This document shows positions 3,744 through 41,841 of a DNA stretch of 64,000 nucleotides, piece by piece. Below the pieces are notes generated by a model. It saw only the letters and a program-made list of their open reading frames with translations. It was not told the origin of the DNA and did no database searches. The DNA is from a virus, in the IMG/VR virus record IMGVR_UViG_3300045988_125866, one strand, 5' to 3'. Numbering within the stretch: position 1 is the first letter of the stretch; each line of letters starts with the position of its first letter. The translations under genes were made by a program, and so were the position numbers.

Positions 3744-4907
3744 TTAACCGTTCAGATAGTCGATGACTTTTCTGTTGGCCTCATCCACCTTTCTTGTGTC
3801 ATATTTTATGTACGTCGAAGTTATCGCATTGTCCCAAAGCGAATGACCAAGAGAACGGCCTATAACCTCCATTGGAATATCCATCTCGCTTGCGATCGTT
3901 GCCCAGGTGTGTCTGCTCCAGTAGCTTGTTATATCCTTCTCGACAGGGTGTATTGTGACATAATAGCTGTGTCGCTCCTTTTCTCCTATTGTACGAAGGT
4001 GTCTTGTCATGTTGTTTGCGAAGGTGTTTGTAAGAGTCGTTCCAGCCTCCTCCAGGAAACTGAGAAGATAGTCCTTCTTCCTGCTCTTATGCCGGCTTAT
4101 TATCTCCATTGCCTCAGGCTCAACCTTGATGTCGTACAATTTTCCTGTCTTGTTGCGCTTGTAGCTTATACGGCCATTCTTCAAAGCCGTCTTTGGAAGG
4201 AACAGCAGGTCGCTTATGTTGATACCGATGAGGTAGAAACATAGCATGAAGCAATCTCTGTACATGGCCTTCTTCCCGGTCAGCCTGAAATCCCTTATCG
4301 CACGCAGCTGTTCAAGGGTCAGGCAGCGCTTTTTGGTCTGCTCCTTTCTCAGCGTGATACCACGGAACGGATACTTGTCCGTCAGTTCGTCGTCTATTGC
4401 CTTGTTGAAGGCGAACTTCATAATCTGAATGTCGGTAGATATTCCGTTCACAGCCCTTCCCTTACTCTTCTCGTGGTCGATATAAGAAAGTACCCACTTC
4501 TTGTCAATAGTGTTAAAGTTACAGTTCTTGTCGTAAGCCTCAATCGTTCTCGCCACTCGCTCGTAATTTCTTCTCGTGTTGTACTTACCCTTCGTTTCTG
4601 CAACTTTAAGTATATACCCAACAAACGAACCTTGATCCGTCTTCTTTGCGCCCTTGACGATTTCCGTTACATGACTTTTTAGCTCATCTGCCGTCTCGTC
4701 CTTGTGGTTTAAAATGTAATCCTCCACGTCCGCATAGAGATTCGCAAGCCTTGCGGTCTTCGCCTTTGCGTTTCGGTCCGACTTCGGGAATATCAACCCG
4801 GAAAACTTTTCAGTTGTCTGCAAACCTGTGTAGACATAGAACCTCTTGTACTTAAAGGTTATAGAAAAGAACACCTTTAGATCCCTTTTGTTTACATAAA
4901 TCTTCAT
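3744..4907 (-). CDS. int: tyrosine site-specific integrase
   Basis: 387-aa ORF. The catalytic C-terminus carries SRHTWATIASE .. IGRSLGH .. STYIKY (R/HxxR/Y pattern). The N-terminal SAM-like region is typical of Bacteroidota phage/CTn integrases. Confidence 0.9.
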   Translation of the reverse strand: MKIYVNKRDLKVFFSITFKYKRFYVYTGLQTTEKFSGLIFPKSDRNAKAKTARLANLYADVEDYILNHKDETADELKSHVTEIVKGAKKTDQGSFVGYILKVAETKGKYNTRRNYERVARTIEAYDKNCNFNTIDKKWVLSYIDHEKSKGRAVNGISTDIQIMKFAFNKAIDDELTDKYPFRGITLRKEQTKKRCLTLEQLRAIRDFRLTGKKAMYRDCFMLCFYLIGINISDLLFLPKTALKNGRISYKRNKTGKLYDIKVEPEAMEIISRHKSRKKDYLLSFLEEAGTTLTNTFANNMTRHLRTIGEKERHSYYVTIHPVEKDITSYWSRHTWATIASEMDIPMEVIGRSLGHSLWDNAITSTYIKYDTRKVDEANRKVIDYLNG

Positions 4908-7344: not shown

Positions 7345-7417
7345 GGACACATAGCTCAGTGGATAGAGCATTTCCCTCCTAAGGAAAGGGTCGCAGGTTC
7401 GATCCCTGCTGTGTCCG
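7345..7417 (+). tRNA. tRNA-Arg(CCT): tRNA-Arg (anticodon CCT)
   Basis: Manual cloverleaf: acceptor GGACACA/TGTGTCC, D stem GCTC/GAGC, anticodon stem TTTCC/GGAAA with loop CTCCTAA, T arm GCAGG-TTCGATC-CCTGC. No encoded CCA. Confidence 0.85.
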
Positions 7418-7772
7418 CAATGTTTGCTTCGTTGATTTTTAGGTGCAAAGCTAACGTCCTTTAAGCTTATAAAGTAGGTAGCTCGGGCAACTACAATCTT
7501 ACATCTTTTTAAAAACAATAGCAAACAATAGCTCTTTGGCTTAATGGTTGACAACATAGTATGCGTGGAAAAGAAGTAGCCGGATAGCGCAATGAGCGCC
7601 GTGACCTGGTGAAAGGACGCACGACATACGAAAATCCAGCTAATTTCTGCATTAAGTAGTTTGGCGAACCGCATCGGAAAGAAGAATTGTCGATGTAGGC
7701 ACATACGAAAATAATGCAGTCTGGTGATTATATTATAATGAGTTCACATCACTCATAGTTTATATATTCAAA

Positions 7773-7951: not shown

Positions 7952-7954
7952 ACA

Positions 7955-8027
7955 GCGGAATAGTAGCAGTTGGTAGCTCGTCAGGCTCATATCCTGAAGG
8001 TCGGTGGTTCGAGTCCACCTTCCGCAA
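7955..8027 (+). tRNA. tRNA-Met(CAT): tRNA with CAT anticodon (Met or Ile2), atypical
   Basis: Anticodon arm TCAGG-CTCATAT-CCTGA and T arm GGTGG-TTCGAGT-CCACC. The acceptor GCGGAA/TTCCGC has only 6 clean pairs, and the D stem has a U10:C25 mismatch. Confidence 0.5.
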
Positions 8028-8111
8028 CGAAATTTATTGCACATGTTAATTTTGCTCGTTAATGTCTCCAGGCGTGGCGTTTTTTTAAATGAATATTAGT
8101 TTTAATGGCTC

Positions 8112-30517: not shown

Positions 30518-31042
30518 TCAATTTGTTATCCAGTACGTCACGAATACGTCCAGAAACCCTGCAACCTCTGCCATATACCACACAGGCTTATATCCTTCGT
30601 CATCGTCCGAACAGCTTACGAGTAGCAGATAGATAAGAGCTATTACAGCCGTTGGTACCCAGCACACCGACAGACACCAGCCTACACACCCTGCCGCAGC
30701 TATAAGCGCACCTCCTTTGTGAATAGGGTAGGCATCAGCATCGAGATAGTTGGGTGCTGCACCTACAAACATCAGTCCTGCGCAACCTATGAAGGCGAGA
30801 CACTGTATGCCCTTACCTATGGTGAGCATACATATCATCATCAGTACCGCACACGTAACCATTACTGCCGTGAATAGCCAACCATAATTCCGTTTGCGGT
30901 TGTCTCCGATGATTTCACTACCAGTACAACCCTGTAGCTGATAGTACACGTCACTCACCATAGCTGGCACACCGAAGCGCATAGCTGATAACAACAGAAA
31001 TCCTCCAAGCAAGAGGAATGAAATCAATGAAAATATCCACAT
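30518..31042 (-). CDS. multi-pass membrane protein
   Basis: 174 aa with about 5 hydrophobic helices. Confidence 0.5.
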   Translation of the reverse strand: MWIFSLISFLLLGGFLLLSAMRFGVPAMVSDVYYQLQGCTGSEIIGDNRKRNYGWLFTAVMVTCAVLMMICMLTIGKGIQCLAFIGCAGLMFVGAAPNYLDADAYPIHKGGALIAAAGCVGWCLSVCWVPTAVIALIYLLLVSCSDDDEGYKPVWYMAEVAGFLDVFVTYWITN

Positions 31043-31064
31043 AATACTTAACTTTTTAATCGTT

Positions 31065-31658
31065 CTACAACTTCATTTCGAGTTGCTTTGGATAGTCGGC
31101 AGTCACATCGAATGCCTCTACCTCTTTGATGGTCTTCAGCTCAGCCACGTCAGCCTTGTGCTTGGCAGTGACATTGAAGCATTCCAGGGCATACATTTCC
31201 AGCGCACTCAGCAACTGGATAGCCTTATCACAATCCACCTCCAGCTTAACGTCTCCAAGCCAAAGCGTAGTAGTCTGCTGACCTGCTGCCTTGGCGATGG
31301 TGGTGGAGTTCATCAAACCCACTCTCGTAGCCTTGTCAAGCCAAACGGTCATACCATTCAATACAAAGCCATTGACCTTGCTAGAGGTATCATAAGCCTC
31401 AATCTCAGCAACCTTTGAGCGGATGCTATAGGCTAGCTCGGATGCATCGTGCTTGGTTTTCCAAGTCTCGTATTCAGCCTTAACCTCGTCGGCATTGTAA
31501 TCAGTTACTGACACGGAGCATTCCACACACTCGTAGGCACCCATGCCTTCCTTTTCGGCTGGGTCGAAATGGATAAGGTAGATACCACCTTCTACTTCCT
31601 CTTTTTCTTTGTAATCGCTCTTGGCGATAATAGTCTTAACAAATGAAATCTTGCTCAT
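31065..31658 (-). CDS. DUF4376-like protein (tail-fibre-associated family)
   Basis: The C-terminal half GFVLNGMTVWLDKATRVGLMNS .. AIQLLSALEMYALECFNVTAKHK resembles DUF4376. Confidence 0.45.
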   Translation of the reverse strand: MSKISFVKTIIAKSDYKEKEEVEGGIYLIHFDPAEKEGMGAYECVECSVSVTDYNADEVKAEYETWKTKHDASELAYSIRSKVAEIEAYDTSSKVNGFVLNGMTVWLDKATRVGLMNSTTIAKAAGQQTTTLWLGDVKLEVDCDKAIQLLSALEMYALECFNVTAKHKADVAELKTIKEVEAFDVTADYPKQLEMKL

Positions 31659-31666
31659 ATTTATAC

Positions 31667-32875
31667 TTATTTATGATTGTTTCTGATACATATCTTCCGC
31701 ATATTTTGGCAATAGACAACATCCTTGTGCCGCATCATATTCCAAGCCTGCCATCTGATAGCGTAGGTATCACGACGAATCATCAGCCCTAGAAGGGAAT
31801 TACATCTACAAGCAAATACCATTGCATCCTTGCTAGTAGGTTCATCTATCTCGTTCCACCACTTTATCAGTCCAAACAGATGGTCTCTTGTTCGGTTGAT
31901 GGTATAGCACCTATGCGGCTTAATGATTGCGCCTGTCATTTGCACACCCTTCTTAGCCTCTTGGAGATAGACCTTATCAGGATGGAGAGTAAGCCCTAGA
32001 TTTACCTTTAGCCATTTTCTTGCATCCTCCAAGGTATCTAGCAGCAATCGCTTGTCACGACTTATGCAGACAAAATCATCAACATACCTTCCATAGCCCG
32101 AACCATCGCCCATCCTAGCCATTATCCACTTGTCGAAGATGCCCATCAGCAGATTGGCGAGTATCTGACTAGGTAAATTGCCAATCGGTAATCCCTTGCC
32201 TTTCTCGTTCGTGAATAACGACTTATTCTTAGGCAGCTTGGCAAAGAGCGACAAATCTCCAACCTTGATGCAATTTTTGGTAGGGTCGTGGAGGACGACT
32301 TTCTTCCATAACCATAACCAAAACTCTATATCGTTCTCGTGATACTCCTTTCGGATAATGTCCCCTACGATGTTATAGAGTCGTTGGCGGTTAATGCTCA
32401 TAAAGAAGCCACTTAGGTCACACCTCAATATCCAGGCCTCCAAGGCATAATCTCCACTGATAGCCTCTATCTGACCTATAAGATGATTGATACCATAATC
32501 AACACCCTTACCCTTGCGACAAGCATAGGCGTTATCGGTCATATATTGCTCGAAGATAGACAAGAACTTGATAGCTAATATGTGATGTACTATTCTGTCC
32601 TTGAAGGTAGCACACCATACTTCCCGAAGCTTCGGGCGAGTGACACAGAAAGCCTTGCTCTGACCTATCTCGTAGGTCATACTATTCAGCTCCAGATATA
32701 GCTGGTAGTTATTGGTGAGGAAGTTCATCTTATACTCGATGCAACCCCAAGTACTGCCCTTATGCTTGCAGCAGTCTCGAAAGCCTTCATCTACAAGTTC
32801 TATCGGCACATATTCCCTCGCTATGTCGGTAGTCGTATTCTCTTCATAATCGGTCATTATATCAAATTTAAGCAT
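31667..32875 (-). CDS. DGR reverse transcriptase
   Basis: 402 aa with FKDRIVHH, SGFFMSI, GLPIGNLPSQILANL and YGRYVDDFVCIS motifs. Begins 31 nt downstream of the template repeat. Confidence 0.9.
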   Translation of the reverse strand: MLKFDIMTDYEENTTTDIAREYVPIELVDEGFRDCCKHKGSTWGCIEYKMNFLTNNYQLYLELNSMTYEIGQSKAFCVTRPKLREVWCATFKDRIVHHILAIKFLSIFEQYMTDNAYACRKGKGVDYGINHLIGQIEAISGDYALEAWILRCDLSGFFMSINRQRLYNIVGDIIRKEYHENDIEFWLWLWKKVVLHDPTKNCIKVGDLSLFAKLPKNKSLFTNEKGKGLPIGNLPSQILANLLMGIFDKWIMARMGDGSGYGRYVDDFVCISRDKRLLLDTLEDARKWLKVNLGLTLHPDKVYLQEAKKGVQMTGAIIKPHRCYTINRTRDHLFGLIKWWNEIDEPTSKDAMVFACRCNSLLGLMIRRDTYAIRWQAWNMMRHKDVVYCQNMRKICIRNNHK

Positions 32876-32906
32876 ACAGAAAATCTTATCGTCACTAAGT
32901 GATAAT

Positions 32907-32997
32907 CGAAAACTGGCAGGACATAGTAGCTATTGTTCTTGTTGTTGTTGTTCGCCTGAGAATTGTAGTACCAAGCGTTCGTGGCATTGTTCTGCGT
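32907..32997 (-). repeat. DGR template repeat (TR)
   Basis: 91 bp aligning without gaps to 33570-33660 (80/91 identical). The sense strand is rich in AAC/AAT codons (AAC AAC AAC AAC AAG AAC AAT). Confidence 0.9.
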
Positions 32998-33087
32998 TTA
33001 CGGCTTCACTGACTTATTCCTAGCAACTCCATCCCTCAGAGGATGGCTGATTGCGGAAGCCCCTTGTCACATTTAGTGACGGCTCTC

Positions 33088-33468
33088 TTACCTTGCCGTA
33101 GCTCGGTAACTCTCACCTTTGCGATTCCTTGTCGATTTCAGCCAGCCATATCCCTCTTGCAATACCTTGTCAACTACATAGTTTAGGTTGGTTGCCGCCT
33201 TCACGCTCAAAAACTGCGCTTCGGCAAAGAGGGTGATTCTAGACTTGACCTCTGATAGACAAAGGATGAACTCGTTCAGATTGCGCTCACGGTCTTCAAA
33301 GGATGAGTTAATCCTTCTCACCAAGTCCAAGGCTGTGCAAGCCTTGCTTATCGCTACCTCGAACTGTCCGTACCTCACTATCTTGCTAATAGTCTTAGAA
33401 TAGTTCAATAGTAGCTTGCACAAGGTGAACGTGTCCTTGTATATCTGTAGATTCTCTGTATATGCCAT
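33088..33468 (-). CDS. avd: Avd-like accessory variability determinant (helical bundle, basic)
   Basis: 126-aa helical ORF positioned between the target gene and TR, as in BPP-1-type DGRs. Confidence 0.7.
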   Translation of the reverse strand: MAYTENLQIYKDTFTLCKLLLNYSKTISKIVRYGQFEVAISKACTALDLVRRINSSFEDRERNLNEFILCLSEVKSRITLFAEAQFLSVKAATNLNYVVDKVLQEGYGWLKSTRNRKGESYRATAR

Positions 33469-33561
33469 GGTTATTTATTCTAAAAATTGCATACTTGCTT
33501 GCTTATCTTGCTTGCCACCTCCCTTCCGTGGAAGAGATAAAGAGGCAAAGAGATAAAGAGG

Positions 33562-35493
33562 TCAGCAAGCGAAAACTGGCAGGACATAGCCGCTACTGCC
33601 CTTGCTGCTGTAGTTCGCCTGAGAATAGTAGAACCAAGCGTTCCTGGCATTGTTCTGCGTACTAGTCCATCTATTCTGACCATTCACGAACTTATAGTAA
33701 GCGTCAGCCACGCTATCCCCGAAGAGTGTTCTCAACACTTCTCGGATGGTGCCAGCATTACTGATATGTACGTACTCCTGACCTACTGACATAAGGAAGC
33801 CATTCAGTTTCTCACCGCCAATCTCTAAGCTCTGACCATAGGCGAAGGAAAATGCAGGTACACTAAGACTTCGCTCCTCAGCCTCTTGTCGAACCAAGAA
33901 GGACGATTGCTCTCCGTTCCAATAGTTAGGGTCAGACGATGTATTGCCATTGAGGGCGATTGAGGTAAATTGTAGATTCTGCGTACACCACTGATACTTT
34001 TGCAGCTTCGTCATATCCTTTAAGTCGGTGCAGCGGATGATGAAGGTACCTCTGTTAAGGCGAAGGTTCTGGTCTGACACCTTGATGGCGATAGCTTCCT
34101 CGGCAGTCTTGCCAGCAGCCACCCAGTCCTCGATGTAGTACTCAGTTGCATCAGAATCAAGCACGTAGATACCTGTCTTGAACTGGTACATATTGACTTG
34201 AATAAGTCGCTGAGCTACCCTTGATGTGTAGGTACGAGAGTTCTTGTTAAAGCGAACATAGTAGCCATCCTCGTCATCAACCCTCACGGTGTACTCCTTG
34301 AGATACGGAACATAGATGGTCGCCTGTCCCTTATCATCGGTGGTGTAGGTTGTTGCCTTATTGTCGATGGTTACAATCACGTCCTTTCCTTCCCAAGGCG
34401 TGCCATTGCCATCGGTGTATTTGGTGACAGTCACGATAACTTTCTCGCTTGCCTCCTCATCATAAGGCTCGTAGCTAAACGTGATGGTCTTGCTCACGCC
34501 CACAGAGGTAAAGCCTATTGGAGACAAGGGCTGAGCGTTGGCATACTCGGGGACGGCTACTTGGTAGTACACACCTCGGCTGACCTTGAATGTGGTCTTG
34601 CCCTCTGAGTCGGTGGTGTAGGTCTGAGGAGTCTTGCCGTTATTGAGAAATACGTTAATCTTGATACCAGCCACCTTGATAGAGTCAACAGAAGAGGCAA
34701 TTGTGACAGTCACTTCCTCATCAGTGTTGATAACATCTACCGATTTGGTTTCTCCGTTGCGGTTTGTCACAGAGATAGTCGAACCCGACATCTCTATATC
34801 GCAGGTTTCCGCACCTGTCGTGGCGGCCTCTGCGTCTTTGATGGCAGTAGTGAAATCTTTCTCACGCTTTGTTTCTGCGTCCACACGAGATTGCTCTGCT
34901 TCTACTCTTGCATCTTCTGCGGCAGCTCTGTCTGTCTCTGCCTGCTTGCGAGTTATTTCTGCATCAACACGTTCTTTCTCAGCAGATACTCTCTGCGTCT
35001 CGGCTTCCTTTCTCGCTTCCTCATTCGCATTGAGGGTATCGTTTATCTCCTTGTTGTTTTTCAGAACCTCATTCGCCTTATCAATTAGGTCACTCAACTC
35101 AACAGAAGGAGGCAGAATAACCATAGCCGTATCCATCTCTACGCTGTTGTCGCCCTCATCAGTAGTCCCAAACTCAGTATCAGCATCGGCATTGTTGGCC
35201 ACGATGGCAAACTGAGGGTATTCGTTGCTTCGCCAGTCATTGCCGAATATCTTACCCTTTACCTCGATAGCATACGTGCCGAGGCTCATCTTATCACCCT
35301 CTACTCTCGCAAGGAGAACATTATCCTCCTTTACATCAATCGTAAATGCAAGAGGTATGCGTTTGAATTGATTACACACCTGTACCACCACGTCCGTACA
35401 GGCTGGCAAGGGGAAAGCCTTCGCTTGCCCCTCCACCATCTTCATCACTGGAATCCTCAGCGTGAAGTCATTACCTTTAACGATTTTCTTCAT
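33562..35493 (-). CDS. DGR target: receptor-binding/tail-fibre protein with C-terminal variable region
   Basis: 643 aa: N-terminal beta domain, Glu/Ala/Arg coiled coil (EEARKEAETQRVSAEKERVDAEITRKQAETDRAAAEDARVEAEQSRVDAE), repeated beta-sandwich-like segments, and a C-terminus ending in the VR (..NAWFYYSQANYSSKGSSGYVLPVFAC). Confidence 0.85.
   Translation of the reverse strand: MKKIVKGNDFTLRIPVMKMVEGQAKAFPLPACTDVVVQVCNQFKRIPLAFTIDVKEDNVLLARVEGDKMSLGTYAIEVKGKIFGNDWRSNEYPQFAIVANNADADTEFGTTDEGDNSVEMDTAMVILPPSVELSDLIDKANEVLKNNKEINDTLNANEEARKEAETQRVSAEKERVDAEITRKQAETDRAAAEDARVEAEQSRVDAETKREKDFTTAIKDAEAATTGAETCDIEMSGSTISVTNRNGETKSVDVINTDEEVTVTIASSVDSIKVAGIKINVFLNNGKTPQTYTTDSEGKTTFKVSRGVYYQVAVPEYANAQPLSPIGFTSVGVSKTITFSYEPYDEEASEKVIVTVTKYTDGNGTPWEGKDVIVTIDNKATTYTTDDKGQATIYVPYLKEYTVRVDDEDGYYVRFNKNSRTYTSRVAQRLIQVNMYQFKTGIYVLDSDATEYYIEDWVAAGKTAEEAIAIKVSDQNLRLNRGTFIIRCTDLKDMTKLQKYQWCTQNLQFTSIALNGNTSSDPNYWNGEQSSFLVRQEAEERSLSVPAFSFAYGQSLEIGGEKLNGFLMSVGQEYVHISNAGTIREVLRTLFGDSVADAYYKFVNGQNRWTSTQNNARNAWFYYSQANYSSKGSSGYVLPVFAC
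33570..33660 (-). repeat. DGR variable repeat (VR)
   Basis: Lies at a constant 663-bp offset from TR. Of 11 mismatches, 9 fall at TR sense-strand adenines. Covers the last 30 codons of the target ORF. Confidence 0.9.
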
Positions 35494-35511
35494 ATAGCTA
35501 TACTATTTTAA

Positions 35512-38500
35512 TTAGTACTGTCTGTTAATTATTCTCGCAAGATATGGCTGTGTAAAACCTTCGAGTGTGTAAGACTTGTCGGGGTTATACATCAACAGAA
35601 ATTCATAAGAGTCTCCTGCCGCCATATCAAAATCAGCCCAATAGCCACCGTTCCAGTGTGTAATAAGCGGGAGGCCTTTAGTGTTCCATCGCGCCACATT
35701 TGCGCCGTCTTTTGTTGTGCATCTTCCTCTCATGGCGATGGACTCGCTGCCAATATCCATCACGATTGTAAGCCTTACGCAGAACTTGTCATCGACATGC
35801 TGCGAACCGAACAGTATCTGCTTGATCGTCCCGAGAGTGGGCAGCGCAAGCGCAAGATAATTTTTCGAGCTGACTATCAGGGTAAGCGAATCTATTTTCT
35901 GTACTTCGTTATAAGTAGTTCCTCTAAACAAACCTGTATTATCAAGGAATACATCCTTGGTAGTCATATTTATCATCGTGTACTTATATCCGTATACTCC
36001 ACCGTTGACCGATACGTCACCAATACCGCGCAGCGCATAGTTCTGCACGCCGTTCTTCGCTTCCGCAAAGTAGCACACGTTGCTATGGTAGCCGTCAGTT
36101 GTATCGATGGCATCTACCCTCATCTTCGCACTGAGGTAAGTTCCAGGGCCAGGAACAGCGAGGGTCTGGTCCGTGTCGATGAATATAGCACTCCGCCCCT
36201 CTGCCTTGATCAGCTGAAAACGAGTATCTGTCAACATCATGCTGTCTTCCTTGAATAAAGCACCACTCGACAGACCTTCGCCCGTTATCTCGAACCGTCC
36301 GAACTTCTTTCGTGTACCACTGTCCTCATCTTCGTAATATCTCACACCGAAAGCACCCTTGTCGGCATACATGTAGCCATCCTTAGAGACACGGAACGGA
36401 GAGTCGGCGGCTGTCGACGAACCTACCCAGAGAGGATATTGCTTTCCGTCTTCATCCTTCGCCTCATCTATATCGTAGTTGCCGAAGTGAGCGAGCGTAT
36501 TTTGGTTATTACCATCTTTCGCCCAAACATGGTGAACATTGATGGTGTCAGCATCTATCAGGTCGGCATTAAGCTTGCCGTCCTGAAACATTGCAGTGGT
36601 AGTGCCGTTATTGCTTACCTTCACCTTGTCGCCATACAGCTCCACACCATCTGCTGTAATATTTAAGCCCGCAGCCTTGGCTGTCGCCTTGTCGATGAGG
36701 TCAGTCTTCTTCTCTGTGTACTCTGTCATCAGAGCACCTTCCTCCAACTTCGGCTTAGCCACCCAAGCCTCACAGCCGTCAACAGCTCGCAGCAGTACCG
36801 ACTGAGGTAACACAGTTTCGCCATCACCCGTATAAAGGTCTATACGCCAGTGTACCCAGTATCGCTTCCATTCGCTCGTCAGTGTGAAGTTCGATGCTCC
36901 GTCGGCCACATTCTCCGTCACCTTTCCCTGGCTGTTCTCTGCGTAGATATTCACGTGAACGCTGTCCTTATACAGGTGTGCTCTCAGAGTTCCGCTTCCC
37001 TTCGCAAGGAACGAGAATACATAATTCTTCCTCAGCTCGAAGTTAAGAATCCTTCCGTTCTCTCCGTTGAATCTCAGGAAGTCACACATATTATTGTTAC
37101 TGCTGTCTGCCTTTCCGTGAACTACGGCATACGCACCCTCGTAGGTGTCCTGTGCCACCTCATTGGCCGTATAAAGGTTGCTCAACTGTCCGCTCGCAAC
37201 AAGCGTCCTCGTGTCGTCGAGCATATTTCCGCCAAGGTAGTCGTAGTCCGTTTCCGCAGGAGTCCAGCCTGTGTACTCGCTTCCTTCCTCCAGCATTGGC
37301 ATACATATCCATCCGTTACCAGAGGCAGTATAACCAAATGTTCCGTCCACGGTTATGCCATTGTAGACAAAGATATTCACCTCGATAAACTCTGCGTCGC
37401 CCGAGTTGAAAGTGTAGTTCACCTGCCTCCATTGGTTCACCTCGTTCTCCTTCGTTATCCACTGCATGTTACCCGAGGTGGCAGTAATTTGGTCCCCTCT
37501 ATTGCCATTCAGCGCAGCCATCTTGAACACCTCCGAATGAATCTGTAAGTCCTTCGTGTCGCACTTTATCCATGCGGAAAATGTATAATCGGTGTTCTTC
37601 TTCACAGCGATGCCGTTGATGGTCAGTCCCCAGAAAAGTCCCTTGTACTGAGGCGTTCCGTTACCCGTCACCGAGAAGCGGATGGCATTATGGCCGTTCA
37701 CGCCCTGTGTTATCGTAGGCTGGAAGAGGCCGTCCGAATAATATATATCACCCTTCCTTGTCAATGACGTATCTCGCAGTAGGTTGTGCCGTCCTTGCTG
37801 GTTCTGAGTCACGCTGAGAGTAATCTCCTTTGCTGTCTGCTTGATAGTAGATGTGTAGGCGTTGAGAACGGTAGGATTACTTCCTTTCAGGTCTTTCTCC
37901 AGTGCCTCAAATTTCGACTGGTACTGCTTGGCCGTAGCCTTTACACTGCCCATGTACTTTGTCACATTCACAGAGAATGGAACCTGTGTACTGTAGCTCT
38001 TCCCTCCGAGAGAGAATGTGATTGTGACAAATCCCTCGCTCACCGACACCTTGTCTCCGCTCGCCAGAGTGATAGTGTTCACAGAATTGAGCTTCACCTT
38101 TATGTATCCTGTAGCCAAGCTTGCCGCAGCCGTACAGTTCTGCATATAGCTCACCCTTACGTCTGAGCACTCGTTAGTAACATTCTCGCCACCTCTCATC
38201 ACCATTACTCGTCCTTCTGCCGTGGTGTCCGACACGATGCCGTCATCGTTAGTGTCGAGCACGATGGGCTGTACGAGAAGTATGCTCACTCCGTCCTCTC
38301 CGTCATTTCCGTTCACACCAGGAGTACCTTGTTCTCCTTTCTCGCCCTGTGGTCCCTGTGCGCCCGTTTCGCCCTGCGCACCTGTTTCTCCTTTAGGTCC
38401 CTGTGGCCCTTCGTCACCTCTATCTCCCTTTTCGCCTTTGTCTCCTTTGCCTCCCTTTTCTCCCGACAACACCTTCTGCCAGTCGCTGTTTGCGTCCGAA

Positions 38501-41500
38501 GGCTCTTGACTTGTTCCGTTCTCGTTGATACAAGTCCACAGGGCGTTGTTATGGTTCACTTGGTCGTAGTAGTCATAGCTTCCTGCCTTCCACTCACCTC
38601 TGTAGTTCACCATGTGCATAGCATCCCCAGTCGAAGATACCCACTCAAAGATACCGCTATTAAGCCTTATCTTGTCAGGCGAAAGCACGAATACCTCCTT
38701 GCCATCGTGTGTATATCTGTCTACACCCTTGAAGCCTACGATGCGAGGTGTGTTCTCGCCAGTACTCTCCAGTATCAGCACACCTTTTCTGCTATCATCG
38801 TCAACAATTTGTCCTCCAACAAAAACAGCTCTATGTCCGTCAAGCACAATAGTGTCTCCTGCTTCAGGAATACCACCTATCTCTGCCGTTGCAAACTCCT
38901 CAGTCATTGAGTCTAACGACAAAGAATGTTTGCCGATTACTATCCATGAGAACATCTGTCCTCCATACAGTTCGTTGCCATATCCGTCATATATCTTCTC
39001 GTTCACACTCGATACGCCGTGCTCAGGGATTGTTCGCCAGTAGCTCTTGTTGCTTGCGTTCGTGGTTCCAGTAGCCAGCGTTCCGATGGTCTTGCACCTC
39101 ACTTGGTCTCCCTCTCTCCACAGGTTTTGTGTAGCCGTAGTTCCGTCATCCGCCAAGAGATAACAGAGCCAGCCTTTGCATTTATCTACAGAGGTCTCTA
39201 TCCATTCACTGCTCTCGCTTTCCCATGTTACAGGCACGACCTTCACTATCTTGCTTCCTGCGCCCGAGAGATACACATTACCGCCTGCATACGACAGTTT
39301 TCTTACCTCCAGTTGATTAAAGATAGCCTTTCCCCAAATGGTGAGGTTGGTGATAAAGCCGTTGTATTTCCCGTTTTCCTTCTTGACAGCGAAACCTTGC
39401 TCTGCTTCATTGTCGTAGTCGATGGACTGCAACGACTCCAAGATGGCCCGTCCTGCCTCGTCTATCAACGCTCCGCCCTTACCAAAGTAAGCACCTCCGT
39501 TCAACTTCACTAAAGCCTCGCTTACCAGTCCTTTGATGAAGGTAATCACGCCTTGTGCGGTGTCATCCTTTAGCTTCGACAGAAAGTGTTTTGAAGCTTC
39601 ATTGATAGTCGAGTCGGTTATCTGTTTCGATGTCTCGCTACTTACCTTTCCGTTTCCAGACTCAAGGGATGAAATCTGCTGCTTTATCTTAGCCATCGTT
39701 CCGACTTCTACATCGTTCCTCAGAGTTACTTCATAGGTTGGTATGCCTCCTTCGTTTTCTCTTATAACGAGCTGGTCGATGGTCACCTTGCCTCCTATGT
39801 GTAAGTCGCCATCGTCAAACTCCATGATGTCGCCGGCCTTCAACGTGTCGTGAAGGCTCTTGATGGTTCCGGTTTTATCTTCAGTCGCTTGGTCGTTTTG
39901 TCTCGCCATAAACACTTCGTCTACCTTGGGCTGGTACACATACCTTGTGTAGTCGTTCTTGTCTATGTAGGCAATGGCGTATTTCAGAAGCTTTAGTGAT
40001 GCTGCGTTCACATAAGAGTCGGGCAGGGTGATACCTGTCAGTACAAAGTGATCTCCTTTTCTGATAGGATAGTCTTTGTATGGGAACCACAGCTCCAAGG
40101 CATCGTCCTTTACTCTCTGTATGGTCAACCTCCATCTGCCGTTCTCTTTTACCGATGATGCTACCTTAAAGGTTCTTCCTCCACACATGCCATCCTTCAT
40201 GGCGATAGAGAAATCACTGTCCTTCAGGTCGTTGATATCGAAGTCGATAGACGGATTCAGGTAGATGTCAACATTGTTTACGGTTTGTCCGTCTTCAAAC
40301 CTTCCGTTGTCATTTGGTGCAACGCCCTCGTCAATCTCATCAACACGCACACCACCGATAACCATTTCTTCGATTGTAGGGTATATCTCTACGATACCGT
40401 TGGTCTTGTCATCGTTATCAAAATATTGCGATGCGGAACGAAGACCAATCTGCTGTATGTTCACAGAGTCAATATAGGGCCTGTATGGATTCGTCGAAAA
40501 GATATGTTCCTTGCCCGTTGGGTTTACATATTCCTTATCAGCCTTACTCAGCGAGTTGTAGTAGTCGTTAAGTGAAACATGAGGGAATCCTGGCAACATC
40601 AGCCTGTTGATAGACATGTTGTTGGGAAGATTCTGCGCATACTCCTTCATTGACGATGGCACTGCCTTAGTGTTCAGGCCGCCAGTTATATACAACTTTC
40701 TGTTTCCTGCGTTTACTTGTGCGATAAACCTGTCAAGATTTTCTTTTGACGGCTCGTCTCCGTTGTCTTCCATGTTGTTCTTCACTTTCGAGTATAACAT
40801 TACGGCCTGCCCGCTGCTCAAAGCTGTCACAACACAGGTGATGACCGTCTGAAAGTCAAACGTCACCTTCAGGACGTATCCGTATGTCTGTTCTTTACCA
40901 GTCCCGTCATTAGGTACGAAAACTCTTGGGATGGTGAAATAATTGTCAATGTACTCCATGTCGATATACACTGACAGATAACTTGTTGCAGTGTTCACCT
41001 CTGTGATGTTACAGAAGTACTTTGTGCCAAGGTCTGCGTAGTAGTGAGATGGGAGGTTCTTTTCTGAACCGTAAGCTCTTAGCCTTGTCACGATTTGCTG
41101 TTCTGAGTCTGCATTTTGGATCAACTCACTCAAACCTTTTCCAAGCCCGTACTTGAAGATATTTTTTGCGAGCACGCCTGCCGTTCCAACGTACACATTC
41201 CGACCTCTTACGATGAAGTTTACGTCCCACTCGCTATTTACTAAGGCCAAAGCTTCCCAACAGGTCTTTCCGTCAACGGTGATAGACTTGGATTCGATAT
41301 CGTTCTTAGGTGTTCCTCCTCCATAAACATTCGTCCAGTCCGCATCCGAACAGCCTCTCTGCAAAGACCTTTTCTTGTTGCGTGAGTACACTTTCCACAC
41401 ACCCTTGCCGATCTGTTCGTCAAGGTTGGCTTGTATTCTGTCGAGAAGGTCGTCAAGTGTCTCTACGTAGAACGAAAACTTCGGCAGGGCAGTATAATGC

Positions 41501-41841
41501 AGTTCGTTGTCGTTCAGAACCACGTCGAGAAACTCCGATCTCGACAACTCGTCCTGCAACGCATTGAACTTTACGCTGTCATACACGAATCCCTCTCCGT
41601 ATGTGTTTAGCCTTGCTTTTTTGTCCTTTCCCGGCTCATAGTTCAACTCGAAGCGCTCTCCTCTGTATATGATGTAGTCGCCTATCTTAAAGTTGATTGG
41701 AGCGTTGTTTTTGAAGTCAATGGTAAGGAAGCAGTCTCCCATCCATTTGTCTGAGTACTGCAATCCGTGAACGACAACCTCGTCATCGTTCACGTCTGTA
41801 AGCTTTGTTCCGTCCTTATGATATATGTTCCACCTACTCAT
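35512..41841 (-). CDS. giant tail fibre / tail-tip host-specificity protein
   Basis: 2109-aa ORF directly after the Dit-position gene. Contains a collagen-like G-X-Y tract and several beta-rich modules. Confidence 0.7.
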   Translation of the reverse strand: MSRWNIYHKDGTKLTDVNDDEVVVHGLQYSDKWMGDCFLTIDFKNNAPINFKIGDYIIYRGERFELNYEPGKDKKARLNTYGEGFVYDSVKFNALQDELSRSEFLDVVLNDNELHYTALPKFSFYVETLDDLLDRIQANLDEQIGKGVWKVYSRNKKRSLQRGCSDADWTNVYGGGTPKNDIESKSITVDGKTCWEALALVNSEWDVNFIVRGRNVYVGTAGVLAKNIFKYGLGKGLSELIQNADSEQQIVTRLRAYGSEKNLPSHYYADLGTKYFCNITEVNTATSYLSVYIDMEYIDNYFTIPRVFVPNDGTGKEQTYGYVLKVTFDFQTVITCVVTALSSGQAVMLYSKVKNNMEDNGDEPSKENLDRFIAQVNAGNRKLYITGGLNTKAVPSSMKEYAQNLPNNMSINRLMLPGFPHVSLNDYYNSLSKADKEYVNPTGKEHIFSTNPYRPYIDSVNIQQIGLRSASQYFDNDDKTNGIVEIYPTIEEMVIGGVRVDEIDEGVAPNDNGRFEDGQTVNNVDIYLNPSIDFDINDLKDSDFSIAMKDGMCGGRTFKVASSVKENGRWRLTIQRVKDDALELWFPYKDYPIRKGDHFVLTGITLPDSYVNAASLKLLKYAIAYIDKNDYTRYVYQPKVDEVFMARQNDQATEDKTGTIKSLHDTLKAGDIMEFDDGDLHIGGKVTIDQLVIRENEGGIPTYEVTLRNDVEVGTMAKIKQQISSLESGNGKVSSETSKQITDSTINEASKHFLSKLKDDTAQGVITFIKGLVSEALVKLNGGAYFGKGGALIDEAGRAILESLQSIDYDNEAEQGFAVKKENGKYNGFITNLTIWGKAIFNQLEVRKLSYAGGNVYLSGAGSKIVKVVPVTWESESSEWIETSVDKCKGWLCYLLADDGTTATQNLWREGDQVRCKTIGTLATGTTNASNKSYWRTIPEHGVSSVNEKIYDGYGNELYGGQMFSWIVIGKHSLSLDSMTEEFATAEIGGIPEAGDTIVLDGHRAVFVGGQIVDDDSRKGVLILESTGENTPRIVGFKGVDRYTHDGKEVFVLSPDKIRLNSGIFEWVSSTGDAMHMVNYRGEWKAGSYDYYDQVNHNNALWTCINENGTSQEPSDANSDWQKVLSGEKGGKGDKGEKGDRGDEGPQGPKGETGAQGETGAQGPQGEKGEQGTPGVNGNDGEDGVSILLVQPIVLDTNDDGIVSDTTAEGRVMVMRGGENVTNECSDVRVSYMQNCTAAASLATGYIKVKLNSVNTITLASGDKVSVSEGFVTITFSLGGKSYSTQVPFSVNVTKYMGSVKATAKQYQSKFEALEKDLKGSNPTVLNAYTSTIKQTAKEITLSVTQNQQGRHNLLRDTSLTRKGDIYYSDGLFQPTITQGVNGHNAIRFSVTGNGTPQYKGLFWGLTINGIAVKKNTDYTFSAWIKCDTKDLQIHSEVFKMAALNGNRGDQITATSGNMQWITKENEVNQWRQVNYTFNSGDAEFIEVNIFVYNGITVDGTFGYTASGNGWICMPMLEEGSEYTGWTPAETDYDYLGGNMLDDTRTLVASGQLSNLYTANEVAQDTYEGAYAVVHGKADSSNNNMCDFLRFNGENGRILNFELRKNYVFSFLAKGSGTLRAHLYKDSVHVNIYAENSQGKVTENVADGASNFTLTSEWKRYWVHWRIDLYTGDGETVLPQSVLLRAVDGCEAWVAKPKLEEGALMTEYTEKKTDLIDKATAKAAGLNITADGVELYGDKVKVSNNGTTTAMFQDGKLNADLIDADTINVHHVWAKDGNNQNTLAHFGNYDIDEAKDEDGKQYPLWVGSSTAADSPFRVSKDGYMYADKGAFGVRYYEDEDSGTRKKFGRFEITGEGLSSGALFKEDSMMLTDTRFQLIKAEGRSAIFIDTDQTLAVPGPGTYLSAKMRVDAIDTTDGYHSNVCYFAEAKNGVQNYALRGIGDVSVNGGVYGYKYTMINMTTKDVFLDNTGLFRGTTYNEVQKIDSLTLIVSSKNYLALALPTLGTIKQILFGSQHVDDKFCVRLTIVMDIGSESIAMRGRCTTKDGANVARWNTKGLPLITHWNGGYWADFDMAAGDSYEFLLMYNPDKSYTLEGFTQPYLARIINRQY
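38291..38463 (-). repeat. collagen-like G-X-Y repeat tract inside the tail fibre
   Basis: Encodes GEKGGKGDKGEKGDRGDEGPQGPKGETGAQGETGAQGPQGEKGEQGTPGVNGNDGEDG. Confidence 0.85.

Follow-up and report, generated by a model that had tools for sequence, protein, structure and literature searches.

Whether a viral reverse transcriptase (RT) gene next to a short repeated sequence marks a complete diversity-generating retroelement (DGR), and which protein such an element would diversify, are the questions raised by IMG/VR virus record IMGVR_UViG_3300045988_125866, of which we analyzed one stretch of 64,000 nucleotides (hereafter the window). A preliminary description, made from the letters alone, had proposed a complete DGR with the order target, avd, template repeat (TR) and RT, acting on a receptor-binding protein. 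Every defining feature that was tested turned out to be present, and the proposal of a complete element is upheld: we conclude, with a probability of about 0.92, that the locus is a real and complete DGR of the type of Bordetella phage BPP-1, residing in a temperate Prevotella/Segatella gut phage. DGRs of this kind are already well known and common in gut Bacteroidota phages; what the present analysis adds is a covarying RNA domain absent from Rfam, a polymorphism of the cassette among relatives, and a Segatella/Prevotella host lineage.

The repeat pair, the reverse transcriptase and the accessory gene

All three genes lie on the minus strand at the coordinates given earlier, with the 643-aa target at 33562-35493, a 126-aa Avd-like gene at 33088-33468 and the 402-aa RT at 31667-32875, and the target-avd-TR-RT order is indeed that of BPP-1. 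A direct-repeat search recovered a single long repeat, 32904-32997 and 33567-33660, which extends over 94 nt at an offset of 663 with no indels and 87% identity. The copy in the target gene, the variable region (VR), forms the last 32 codons of the 643-aa open reading frame (ORF), so that the VR peptide quoted before as 30 codons in fact has 32 residues; the other copy, the TR (32904-32997, minus strand), is non-coding and located 28 nt before the RT ORF. For the slightly shorter span first described, 32907-32997, the gap-free alignment at 663 nt and its 11 mismatches were reproduced base by base, nine of them being plus-strand T exactly at the coordinates listed, and the three extra homologous bases beyond 32907 contribute one more mismatch at a TR adenine, at 32906. 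The sense-strand TR reads AAC AAC AAC AAC AAG AAC AAT, as claimed, and translates in the VR frame to TQNNATNAWYYNSQANNNNKNNSYYVLPVF.

Counted over the full 94 nt on the sense strand, 12 positions differ between TR and VR, ten of which are adenines of the TR (6 A>G, 3 A>T, 1 A>C), with the non-adenine mismatches at plus-strand 32928 and 32981. Since adenine makes up 33 of the 94 TR bases, the hypergeometric probability of finding at least 10 of 12 mismatches at A is P = 3.8e-4, which excludes chance as the origin of the bias. Further VR-like copies were found neither in the window nor in ~19 kb of the same genome retrieved from beyond it.

The enzyme encoded beside the TR matches Pfam RVT_1 at 2e-14 and phrog_1423 at 9e-63, and contains both motifs reported previously, YVDDF and LPIGNLPSQ. 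Its best PDB match is 8ub7_A, a 328-aa RT (entries 8ub7-8ube) at E 2e-24, compared with ~1e-5 for retron and group II RTs; from the fit of its residue numbering, and not from a paper, we take this entry to be the Bordetella DGR RT (bRT). Identity to the BPP-1 RT is ~28%. Residues I231-Q237 read IGNLPSQ and align with bRT I181-Q187, YVDD occupies 264-267, and the catalytic D153, D266 and D267 are intact and kept across four divergent homologs. R84 corresponds to bRT R74, which is the second residue with a demonstrated role in promoting adenine mutagenesis. In the subgroup represented by L004 an in-frame stop follows the upstream ATG of the RT, and the conserved start is therefore probably Met7 (ATGACCGATTATGAAGAG, 32857), giving an RT of 396 aa and a TR-RT spacer of 46 nt.

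Among deposited sequences, Bacteroides phages F2, F4 and Bacuni_F1 have the closest RTs, at 37-40% identity (35-40% if BS-TP1 is included). In BS-TP1 itself (PQ571274.1; L048:4713-4990) the deposited 'reverse transcriptase' coding sequence is extended N-terminally through the template repeat, its first ~90 residues reading ...HWSSTENSAHNSWNVNFNNGNSNNNNKYNANVVRPAV, a TR translation of DUF1566 type; the extension is probably an annotation artefact.

Placement of the RT in the DGR clade, a check suggested earlier, was addressed by association instead of a tree on a curated set: a search with four aligned RTs gave 80 viral loci with RT relatives (34-93% identity). Of these, 73 have a VR/TR pair arranged as in the window, typically with the VR lying 600-760 nt 5' of the TR and the latter just before the RT, and 753 of the 784 mismatches in these 73 pairs (96%) fall on A of the RT-proximal copy. 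Membership of the DGR clade thus rests on this association as well as on the motifs.

The same data bear on whether the RT could belong to another class (retron, group II intron, or abortive infection (Abi)/defense-associated RT (DRT)), the 94-nt repeat then being an unrelated duplication. Such an assignment could draw on weak, sub-threshold group II, retron and DRT matches, as any RT gives, and on the presence of a separate UG27-class RT in the same genome outside the window. However, the retron and DRT models of NCBIfam and PADLOC returned no specific match, and no class-specific model came near its cut-off, whereas the second RT matches RT_UG27 at 3e-219. Furthermore, the window enzyme displays [I/V/L]GxxxSQ, the signature motif of DGR RTs, instead of the QGxxxSP found in other RTs (PMC7826257, PMC3575424), the mismatches are adenine-specific both here and at the 73 related loci, and no intron or msr/msd-like RNA family was matched. 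We consider the assignment to another class effectively refuted, and the RT is treated as a DGR enzyme below.

The second RT of this phage, 421 aa in length, is represented at L049:1-829 (plus strand) and L052:1-1213 (minus strand), ~9-10 kb before position 1 of the window, where it adjoins small early-type genes on the same circular genome. Its PADLOC RT_UG27 match is full length, and it reads QGCSVAA and YSDD, not the DGR motif.

The 126-aa protein encoded between target and TR has a basic C-terminus and matches phrog_3206, 'Avd protein of DGR', over its full length at E 1e-6. A profile of 31 homologs aligned by hhalign in a colinear manner to the Avds of Bacteroides phages F2 and BS-TP1 (E 1.7e-4, probability 50%), which themselves match Pfam bAvd at 5e-36; the 65 homologs of the 126-aa protein are devoid of any Pfam domain. 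Matches to TPR and designed-helix proteins in PDB sequence and profile searches were rejected as spurious. On sequence, size and position we accept this protein, with moderate support, as a divergent Avd.

Diversification in sister phages and the 3' limit of the variable region

Is the pair being diversified? Sister phages, with RTs ~92% identical and variable domains 92% identical to those of the window, allow the process to be followed between close genomes. Between L009 and L010, 16 of 8,753 aligned bases are different; the 96-nt VR holds 15 of these, among them 14 at TR-adenine positions. Moreover, L004, L005, L009, L010 and L011 share one common TR and have five different VRs. As judged from these genome comparisons, adenine-specific diversification is shown to be ongoing in the sister phages, and the window TR is 2-3 bases off the TRs of these diversifying relatives.

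Variation in the protein follows the template codon by codon. Fifteen TR codons with A at position 1 or 2 (mostly AAC/AAT/TAC) match hypervariable residues of the target, which are placed in the last beta-strands and loops of a DUF1566/C-type-lectin-like domain, the TR being constant. In 29 close homologs, residue entropy reaches 2-3 bits at the AAC/AAT/TAC-templated codons and ~0 at A-free codons, with a mean of 0.17 bits over the 181 residues preceding the VR. Together with the TR mismatches, these values delimit the variable region proper to codons 612-636 (33586-33660, minus strand). Inside it, Lys631 (AAG, 33601-33603) is K in 27/29 and Gln613 (CAG, 33655-33657) is Q in 29/29 of the close homologs, and both are kept in 90% or more of 80 distant members despite the adenines in their template codons, a pattern which suggests purifying selection on scaffold residues within the mutagenized zone.

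Beyond codon 636 the variation ceases. The 3' end of the VR (33567-33585, minus strand), as delimited by comparison of TR and VR and of the relatives, is invariant and reads GTCCTGCCAGTTTTCGCTT, including a 16-nt core, GTCCTGCCAGTTTTCG, identical in TR and VR, after which the two diverge to GCTTGCTGA in the VR and GATTATCAC in the TR; past the shared GTCCTGCCAGTTTTCG come CTTGCTGA in the VR and ATTATCAC in the TR. In the codon for Pro639, CCA, the third-position A is free to change silently, yet it is invariant in the relatives and hence lies outside the mutagenized zone. Position 32906, in the codon for residue 642, is GAT in the TR and GCT in the VR, fixed in 29/29 close relatives, and therefore represents a difference at the TR/VR boundary, not a product of mutagenesis. 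The constancy of CCA and the fixed GAT/GCT difference point to a 3' boundary at GTCCTGCCAGTTTTCG resembling the initiation of mutagenic homing (IMH)/IMH* arrangement, a type of boundary described for nearly all DGRs (PMC5758913). A DNA hairpin after the VR was also considered; with z = -1.47, a composition that is not GC-rich, and absence in the L019 subgroup, it is not claimed.

Collectively, the likeness to BPP-1 (mtd-avd-TR-brt) comprises the gene order, the VR at the 3' end of a tail-module gene, an Avd-type gene, the AAC-rich TR, the IGxxxSQ and YxDD motifs of the RT and the IMH-like VR end.

The target protein and its lectin-like domain

The protein that would be diversified has an N-terminal beta domain, followed by a ~90-residue coiled coil, Ig/prealbumin-like repeats, and a C-terminal domain of 213 aa (431-643) that includes the VR. 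Pfam yields weak Big_1/SpaA matches in the middle of the protein only. There are more than 4,100 homologs of the target, and a tblastn search of 50,697 phage records with it, like a megablast search of the same records with the DGR cassette, returned no match. An exhaustive profile-free search with residues 431-643 produced 134 cluster representatives, and in 94 of the 113 with a near-full-length match the domain forms the end of the protein. The family shares the motif KWTSTQ..A..AW...K..S..V(V/L)P(F/V)FA(Y/C).

In the full-length AlphaFold2 model of the target the C-terminal domain had a pLDDT (predicted local distance difference test score) below 50, and this domain was therefore modeled separately, from an alignment of greater diversity. 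With 79 members, the model of 431-643 reached pLDDT 96.6 and a predicted template-modeling score (pTM) of 0.92. Foldseek places it closest, among viral proteins, to DUF1566-annotated and tail-fiber proteins (TM score 0.70-0.73, E 1e-8 to 1e-11), and in the PDB to the Bacteroides ovatus fimbrial protein 4eps (E 6.5e-3, TM 0.53) and the C-terminal domain of Legionella Lcl, 8q4e (probability 0.99 over 79 columns; the Lcl domain comprises 131 residues and the window domain is larger, at ~210). In the domain model the VR spans residues 182-213 and takes in the final four to five beta-strands. The prediction is congruent with the C-type-lectin-like fold anticipated for the C-terminus. Neither the window domain nor 80 diverse members gave a Pfam match, DUF1566 (PF07603) included, and NCBIfam and PDB sequence searches with the variable domain were empty; as modeled, the resemblance to DUF1566 is structural only.

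Several traits are shared with the CLec2/DUF1566 targets (Legionella LdtA class; category d of Wu et al. 2018), namely the C-terminal VR, the W-[ST]-S-T ... A..AW ... K ... pattern and a short constant tail. Recognized DUF1566 domains end in a constant tail of the VRCVR type; the window family, in contrast, has the tail V(L/V)P(V/F)FA(C/Y) and escapes the Pfam DUF1566 model. Ig-like domains upstream, as in the window target, have been described for this category (PMC5758913). Membership of the Tentaclin family was rejected on domain order: the family is defined by an N-terminal C-lec domain with Ig domains after it (PMC10743442), whereas the window target has its Ig-like repeats ahead of a C-terminal lectin-like domain. 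Unlike the BPP-1 case, the target is unrelated to Mtd by sequence, with no PDB sequence match, and its lectin domain is DUF1566-like.

As to where the protein acts, the gene is located in the tail module, in the order tape measure, a 162-aa gene, a 2109-aa fiber, the target, and a DUF4376 gene of a 'tail fiber' family. The 2109-aa ORF (35512-41841, minus strand) lies directly upstream of the target gene, as the preliminary description had it, and carries collagen repeats and a carbohydrate-binding module. The N-terminal 75-190 residues of the target recur with unrelated C-termini in other phages. Its place in the tail module, the modular N-terminus and the predicted fold argue for a fiber or receptor-binding protein.

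The element could, however, be a real DGR whose target is something other than the host receptor-binding protein, i.e. an accessory adhesin for mucus or other glycans, or a virion decoration outside the tail. The sole PHROG match of the target, from its coiled coil to a 'virion structural protein' family, is filed under head and packaging, the phage already possesses the 2109-aa fiber, and binding to intestinal or immune cells has been proposed for DGR-diversified phage lectin proteins (PMC10743442). Against such a role, the gene sits inside the tail module, its N-terminus is shared with unrelated C-termini in the manner typical of tail fibers, the best structural neighbors include annotated tail-fiber proteins, and the DGR targets of Bacteroidota prophages are reported as tail proteins, with tail-protein-targeting DGRs in 43% of inducible Bacteroidota prophage species (PMC12629997). 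We find an accessory or non-tail role unlikely, albeit the most serious of the competing interpretations, and favor a fiber-like receptor-binding protein.

Two neighboring observations concern the target gene and its surroundings. The DUF4376 gene (31065-31658, minus strand) always comes after the cassette, or after the target when the cassette is absent; it may be a conserved partner of the target, possibly serving in fiber assembly or attachment. Separately, L034, which shares only the first 75 residues of the target, holds another VR/TR pair (321-431 and 696-806, 111 nt, 16/16 mismatches at A) ~5 kb upstream of the gene with these residues; this pair belongs to a DGR that is directed at a different gene within the same group of phages.

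Template RNA, phage lineage and the fate of the cassette

Two structural elements lie in the 90-nt spacer between avd and TR. A hairpin, H1 (GUCAC/GUGAC), pairs 33076-33080 with 33066-33070 and is separated by an invariant AAGGGG box from P2, a 6-bp long-range stem of 33056-33061 (GGCUUC) with 33002-33007 (GAAGCC), which has variable hairpins inside it and terminates 4 nt short of the TR. The structure was assessed by RNAalifold and pair counts on 14 divergent cassettes, with shuffles (n=500) and slid controls. All cells (100%) were paired, compared with 86% in the shuffles (0/500) and at most 57% in the slid controls, and two-sided changes were seen in 30 cells against 8.4 expected from the shuffles (0/500). 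Eight of the 11 pairs, including all six of P2, have changed on both sides. The whole-spacer folding energy is no better than that of shuffles (z +0.88), and it is thus covariation that carries the structure.

A covariance model built on this domain finds one match per cassette, always just 5' of the TR (in the window 32990-33085, minus strand, E 3e-20), and matches every searched locus with an RT identity of ~43% or more and none of the more distant cassettes. Rfam recognizes no family in 31000-36000, and a scan for promoters and terminators showed no enrichment. On the other side of the template, a box at and after the 3' boundary of the TR (32885-32908, minus strand), CGATTATCAC-TTA-GTGACGATAAG, is conserved across subgroups, the boundary sequence being CGATTATCAC...GTGACGAT. 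A hairpin directly 3' of the TR was examined in two registers, neither of which had covariation or excess pairing, and the segment is retained as a conserved sequence box.

In BPP-1 the cDNA-stop duplex, located directly 5' of the TR, forms between avd and the 3' spacer of 140 nt (10.1101/2023.10.23.563531). The window differs in having a TR-RT spacer of 28-46 nt, a trait of its whole clade, as opposed to 140 nt, and a covarying domain of ~95 nt 5' of the TR, with both strands of P2 upstream. P2 may serve as a cDNA stop or in docking of RT and Avd. Tentatively, and with more doubt than confidence, we propose that the template RNA of this clade departs from that of BPP-1 by building its docking or stop scaffold from upstream RNA alone, through a motif that may be previously undescribed and specific to a large set of DGRs from gut Bacteroidota phages. 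In the cultured Bacteroides phages F2, F4, Bacuni_F1 and BS-TP1 the target-avd-(TR)-RT order is the same, and BS-TP1 also has the DUF4376 gene after the RT and a TR translating to the pattern WS(S/T)T..A..W...NNNNK...V.P. The cultured Bacteroides phage DGRs differ in their strong bAvd-matching Avds, their host genus and in going undetected by the model of the RNA 5' of the TR.

By analogy to the Bordetella system, the RT and the Avd-like protein would jointly bind a transcript that runs from the 3' end of avd across the structured spacer and the TR through the short box downstream. Reverse transcription of the TR would be faithful except opposite adenines, where random bases would be inserted, and the resulting cDNA would take the place of the homologous VR at the target gene's 3' end (33586-33660). 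The 3' limit of this replacement would be set by the invariant GTCCTGCCAGTTTTCG, and the stem ending 4 nt upstream of the TR appears positioned to stop cDNA synthesis or to dock the RT-Avd complex.

The phage genome to which the window belongs is circularly permuted, measures ~84 kb and encodes terminase, portal, major head protein, a 2298-aa tape measure and an integrase, the gene of the latter (3744-4907, minus strand) marking the prophage end. Its large terminase shares 58.6% identity with the enzymes of Bacteroides LoVEphage and temperate phages related to it. In L050 and in L051, from ~15100 on, the phage region abuts bacterial genes for pseudouridine synthases, EamA, DHDPS, AraC and UxaC, which are 100% identical to Prevotella sp. 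B2-R-102 and 94-97% to Segatella copri. From these bacterial flanks of integrated relatives it follows that the phage is temperate and infects Segatella/Prevotella. A contig search of genomes with the RT found no relatives. LoVEphage, with the nearest backbone, is likewise temperate and of ~70-85 kb, and its tail fiber gene is reported upstream of an RT (PMC8525569); it shows no nucleotide similarity in the DGR region, it is at best a distant relative at family level, and the host lineage here is Segatella/Prevotella. The window also contains two tRNA genes, tRNA-Arg(CCU) at 7345-7418 and tRNA-Met(CAU) at 7954-8028, both on the plus strand.

Among relatives the avd-TR-RT module of ~1.9 kb (compared over 31065-33561 of the window) is a presence/absence polymorphism. 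Eleven lack it (L001-L003, L006, L007, L012-L014, L016, L017 and L021), having the DUF4376 gene directly after the target. In one of these, L003, the variable domain is 91% identical and the 'VR' is still DGR-shaped. L015 (1893-2720) is decayed: avd and TR are kept, the VR has 4 mismatches to the TR, and the RT is cut to its last ~15 codons, fused after the TR.

A number of points weigh against the conclusion that the window holds a complete and functional DGR of the BPP-1 type. Relatives readily lose the cassette. Two of the 12 mismatches are off adenine here, compared with ~4% in the RT clade. The 126-aa protein lacks a Pfam bAvd or PDB match of its own, leaving the support for an Avd moderate. 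BPP-1 priming is not simply transferable, as the TR-RT spacer is short and the 3' hairpin lacks covariation support, and virion location and host binding of the target are matters that we infer. The exact target protein is confined to assemblies of one human gut sample, and anchored VR patterns (N at TR-A; verified on the window) detected zero same-strain variants in IMG/VR and in the metagenome contigs of JGI, since these collections do not include the contig of the window itself. With the protein in a single sample and the pattern scans empty, present-day activity in the window phage itself is something we infer.

Part of this would also fit a fossil, a DGR that was once active and left an adenine-biased VR behind, no longer working in the window phage: population evidence for the strain did not emerge from the scans, the two mismatches off adenine could have arisen by drift after the most recent homing event, and the lineage sheds the cassette, with 11 relatives devoid of it and nearly all of the RT gone in L015. 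Nonetheless, all three ORFs are intact, with the catalytic and adenine-mutagenesis residues of the RT conserved, the TR maintains its AAC-rich design at 2-3 bases from the TRs of diversifying sister phages, and the flanking RNA domain is intact, scoring as well as those of other cassettes. A fossil hence seems improbable to us, and an element that is probably still capable of homing remains the preferred reading.

As the target is a fiber-like protein of the tail module in a temperate Segatella/Prevotella siphophage, its variation probably retunes the binding of ligand or receptor. DGRs are already common in the gut virome, and one more that targets a tail protein therefore leaves that picture unchanged. 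The locus does link a large unannotated family, whose more than 4,100 sequences lack Pfam matches, to a predicted lectin fold resembling DUF1566 and diversified by DGRs. Further, the covarying RNA domain beside the template makes cDNA priming and termination directly testable in DGRs other than that of Bordetella. Finally, a single Segatella/Prevotella phage lineage offers a natural series of active, cassette-less and RT-deleted forms, which is usable for determining what the DGR contributes to host range.

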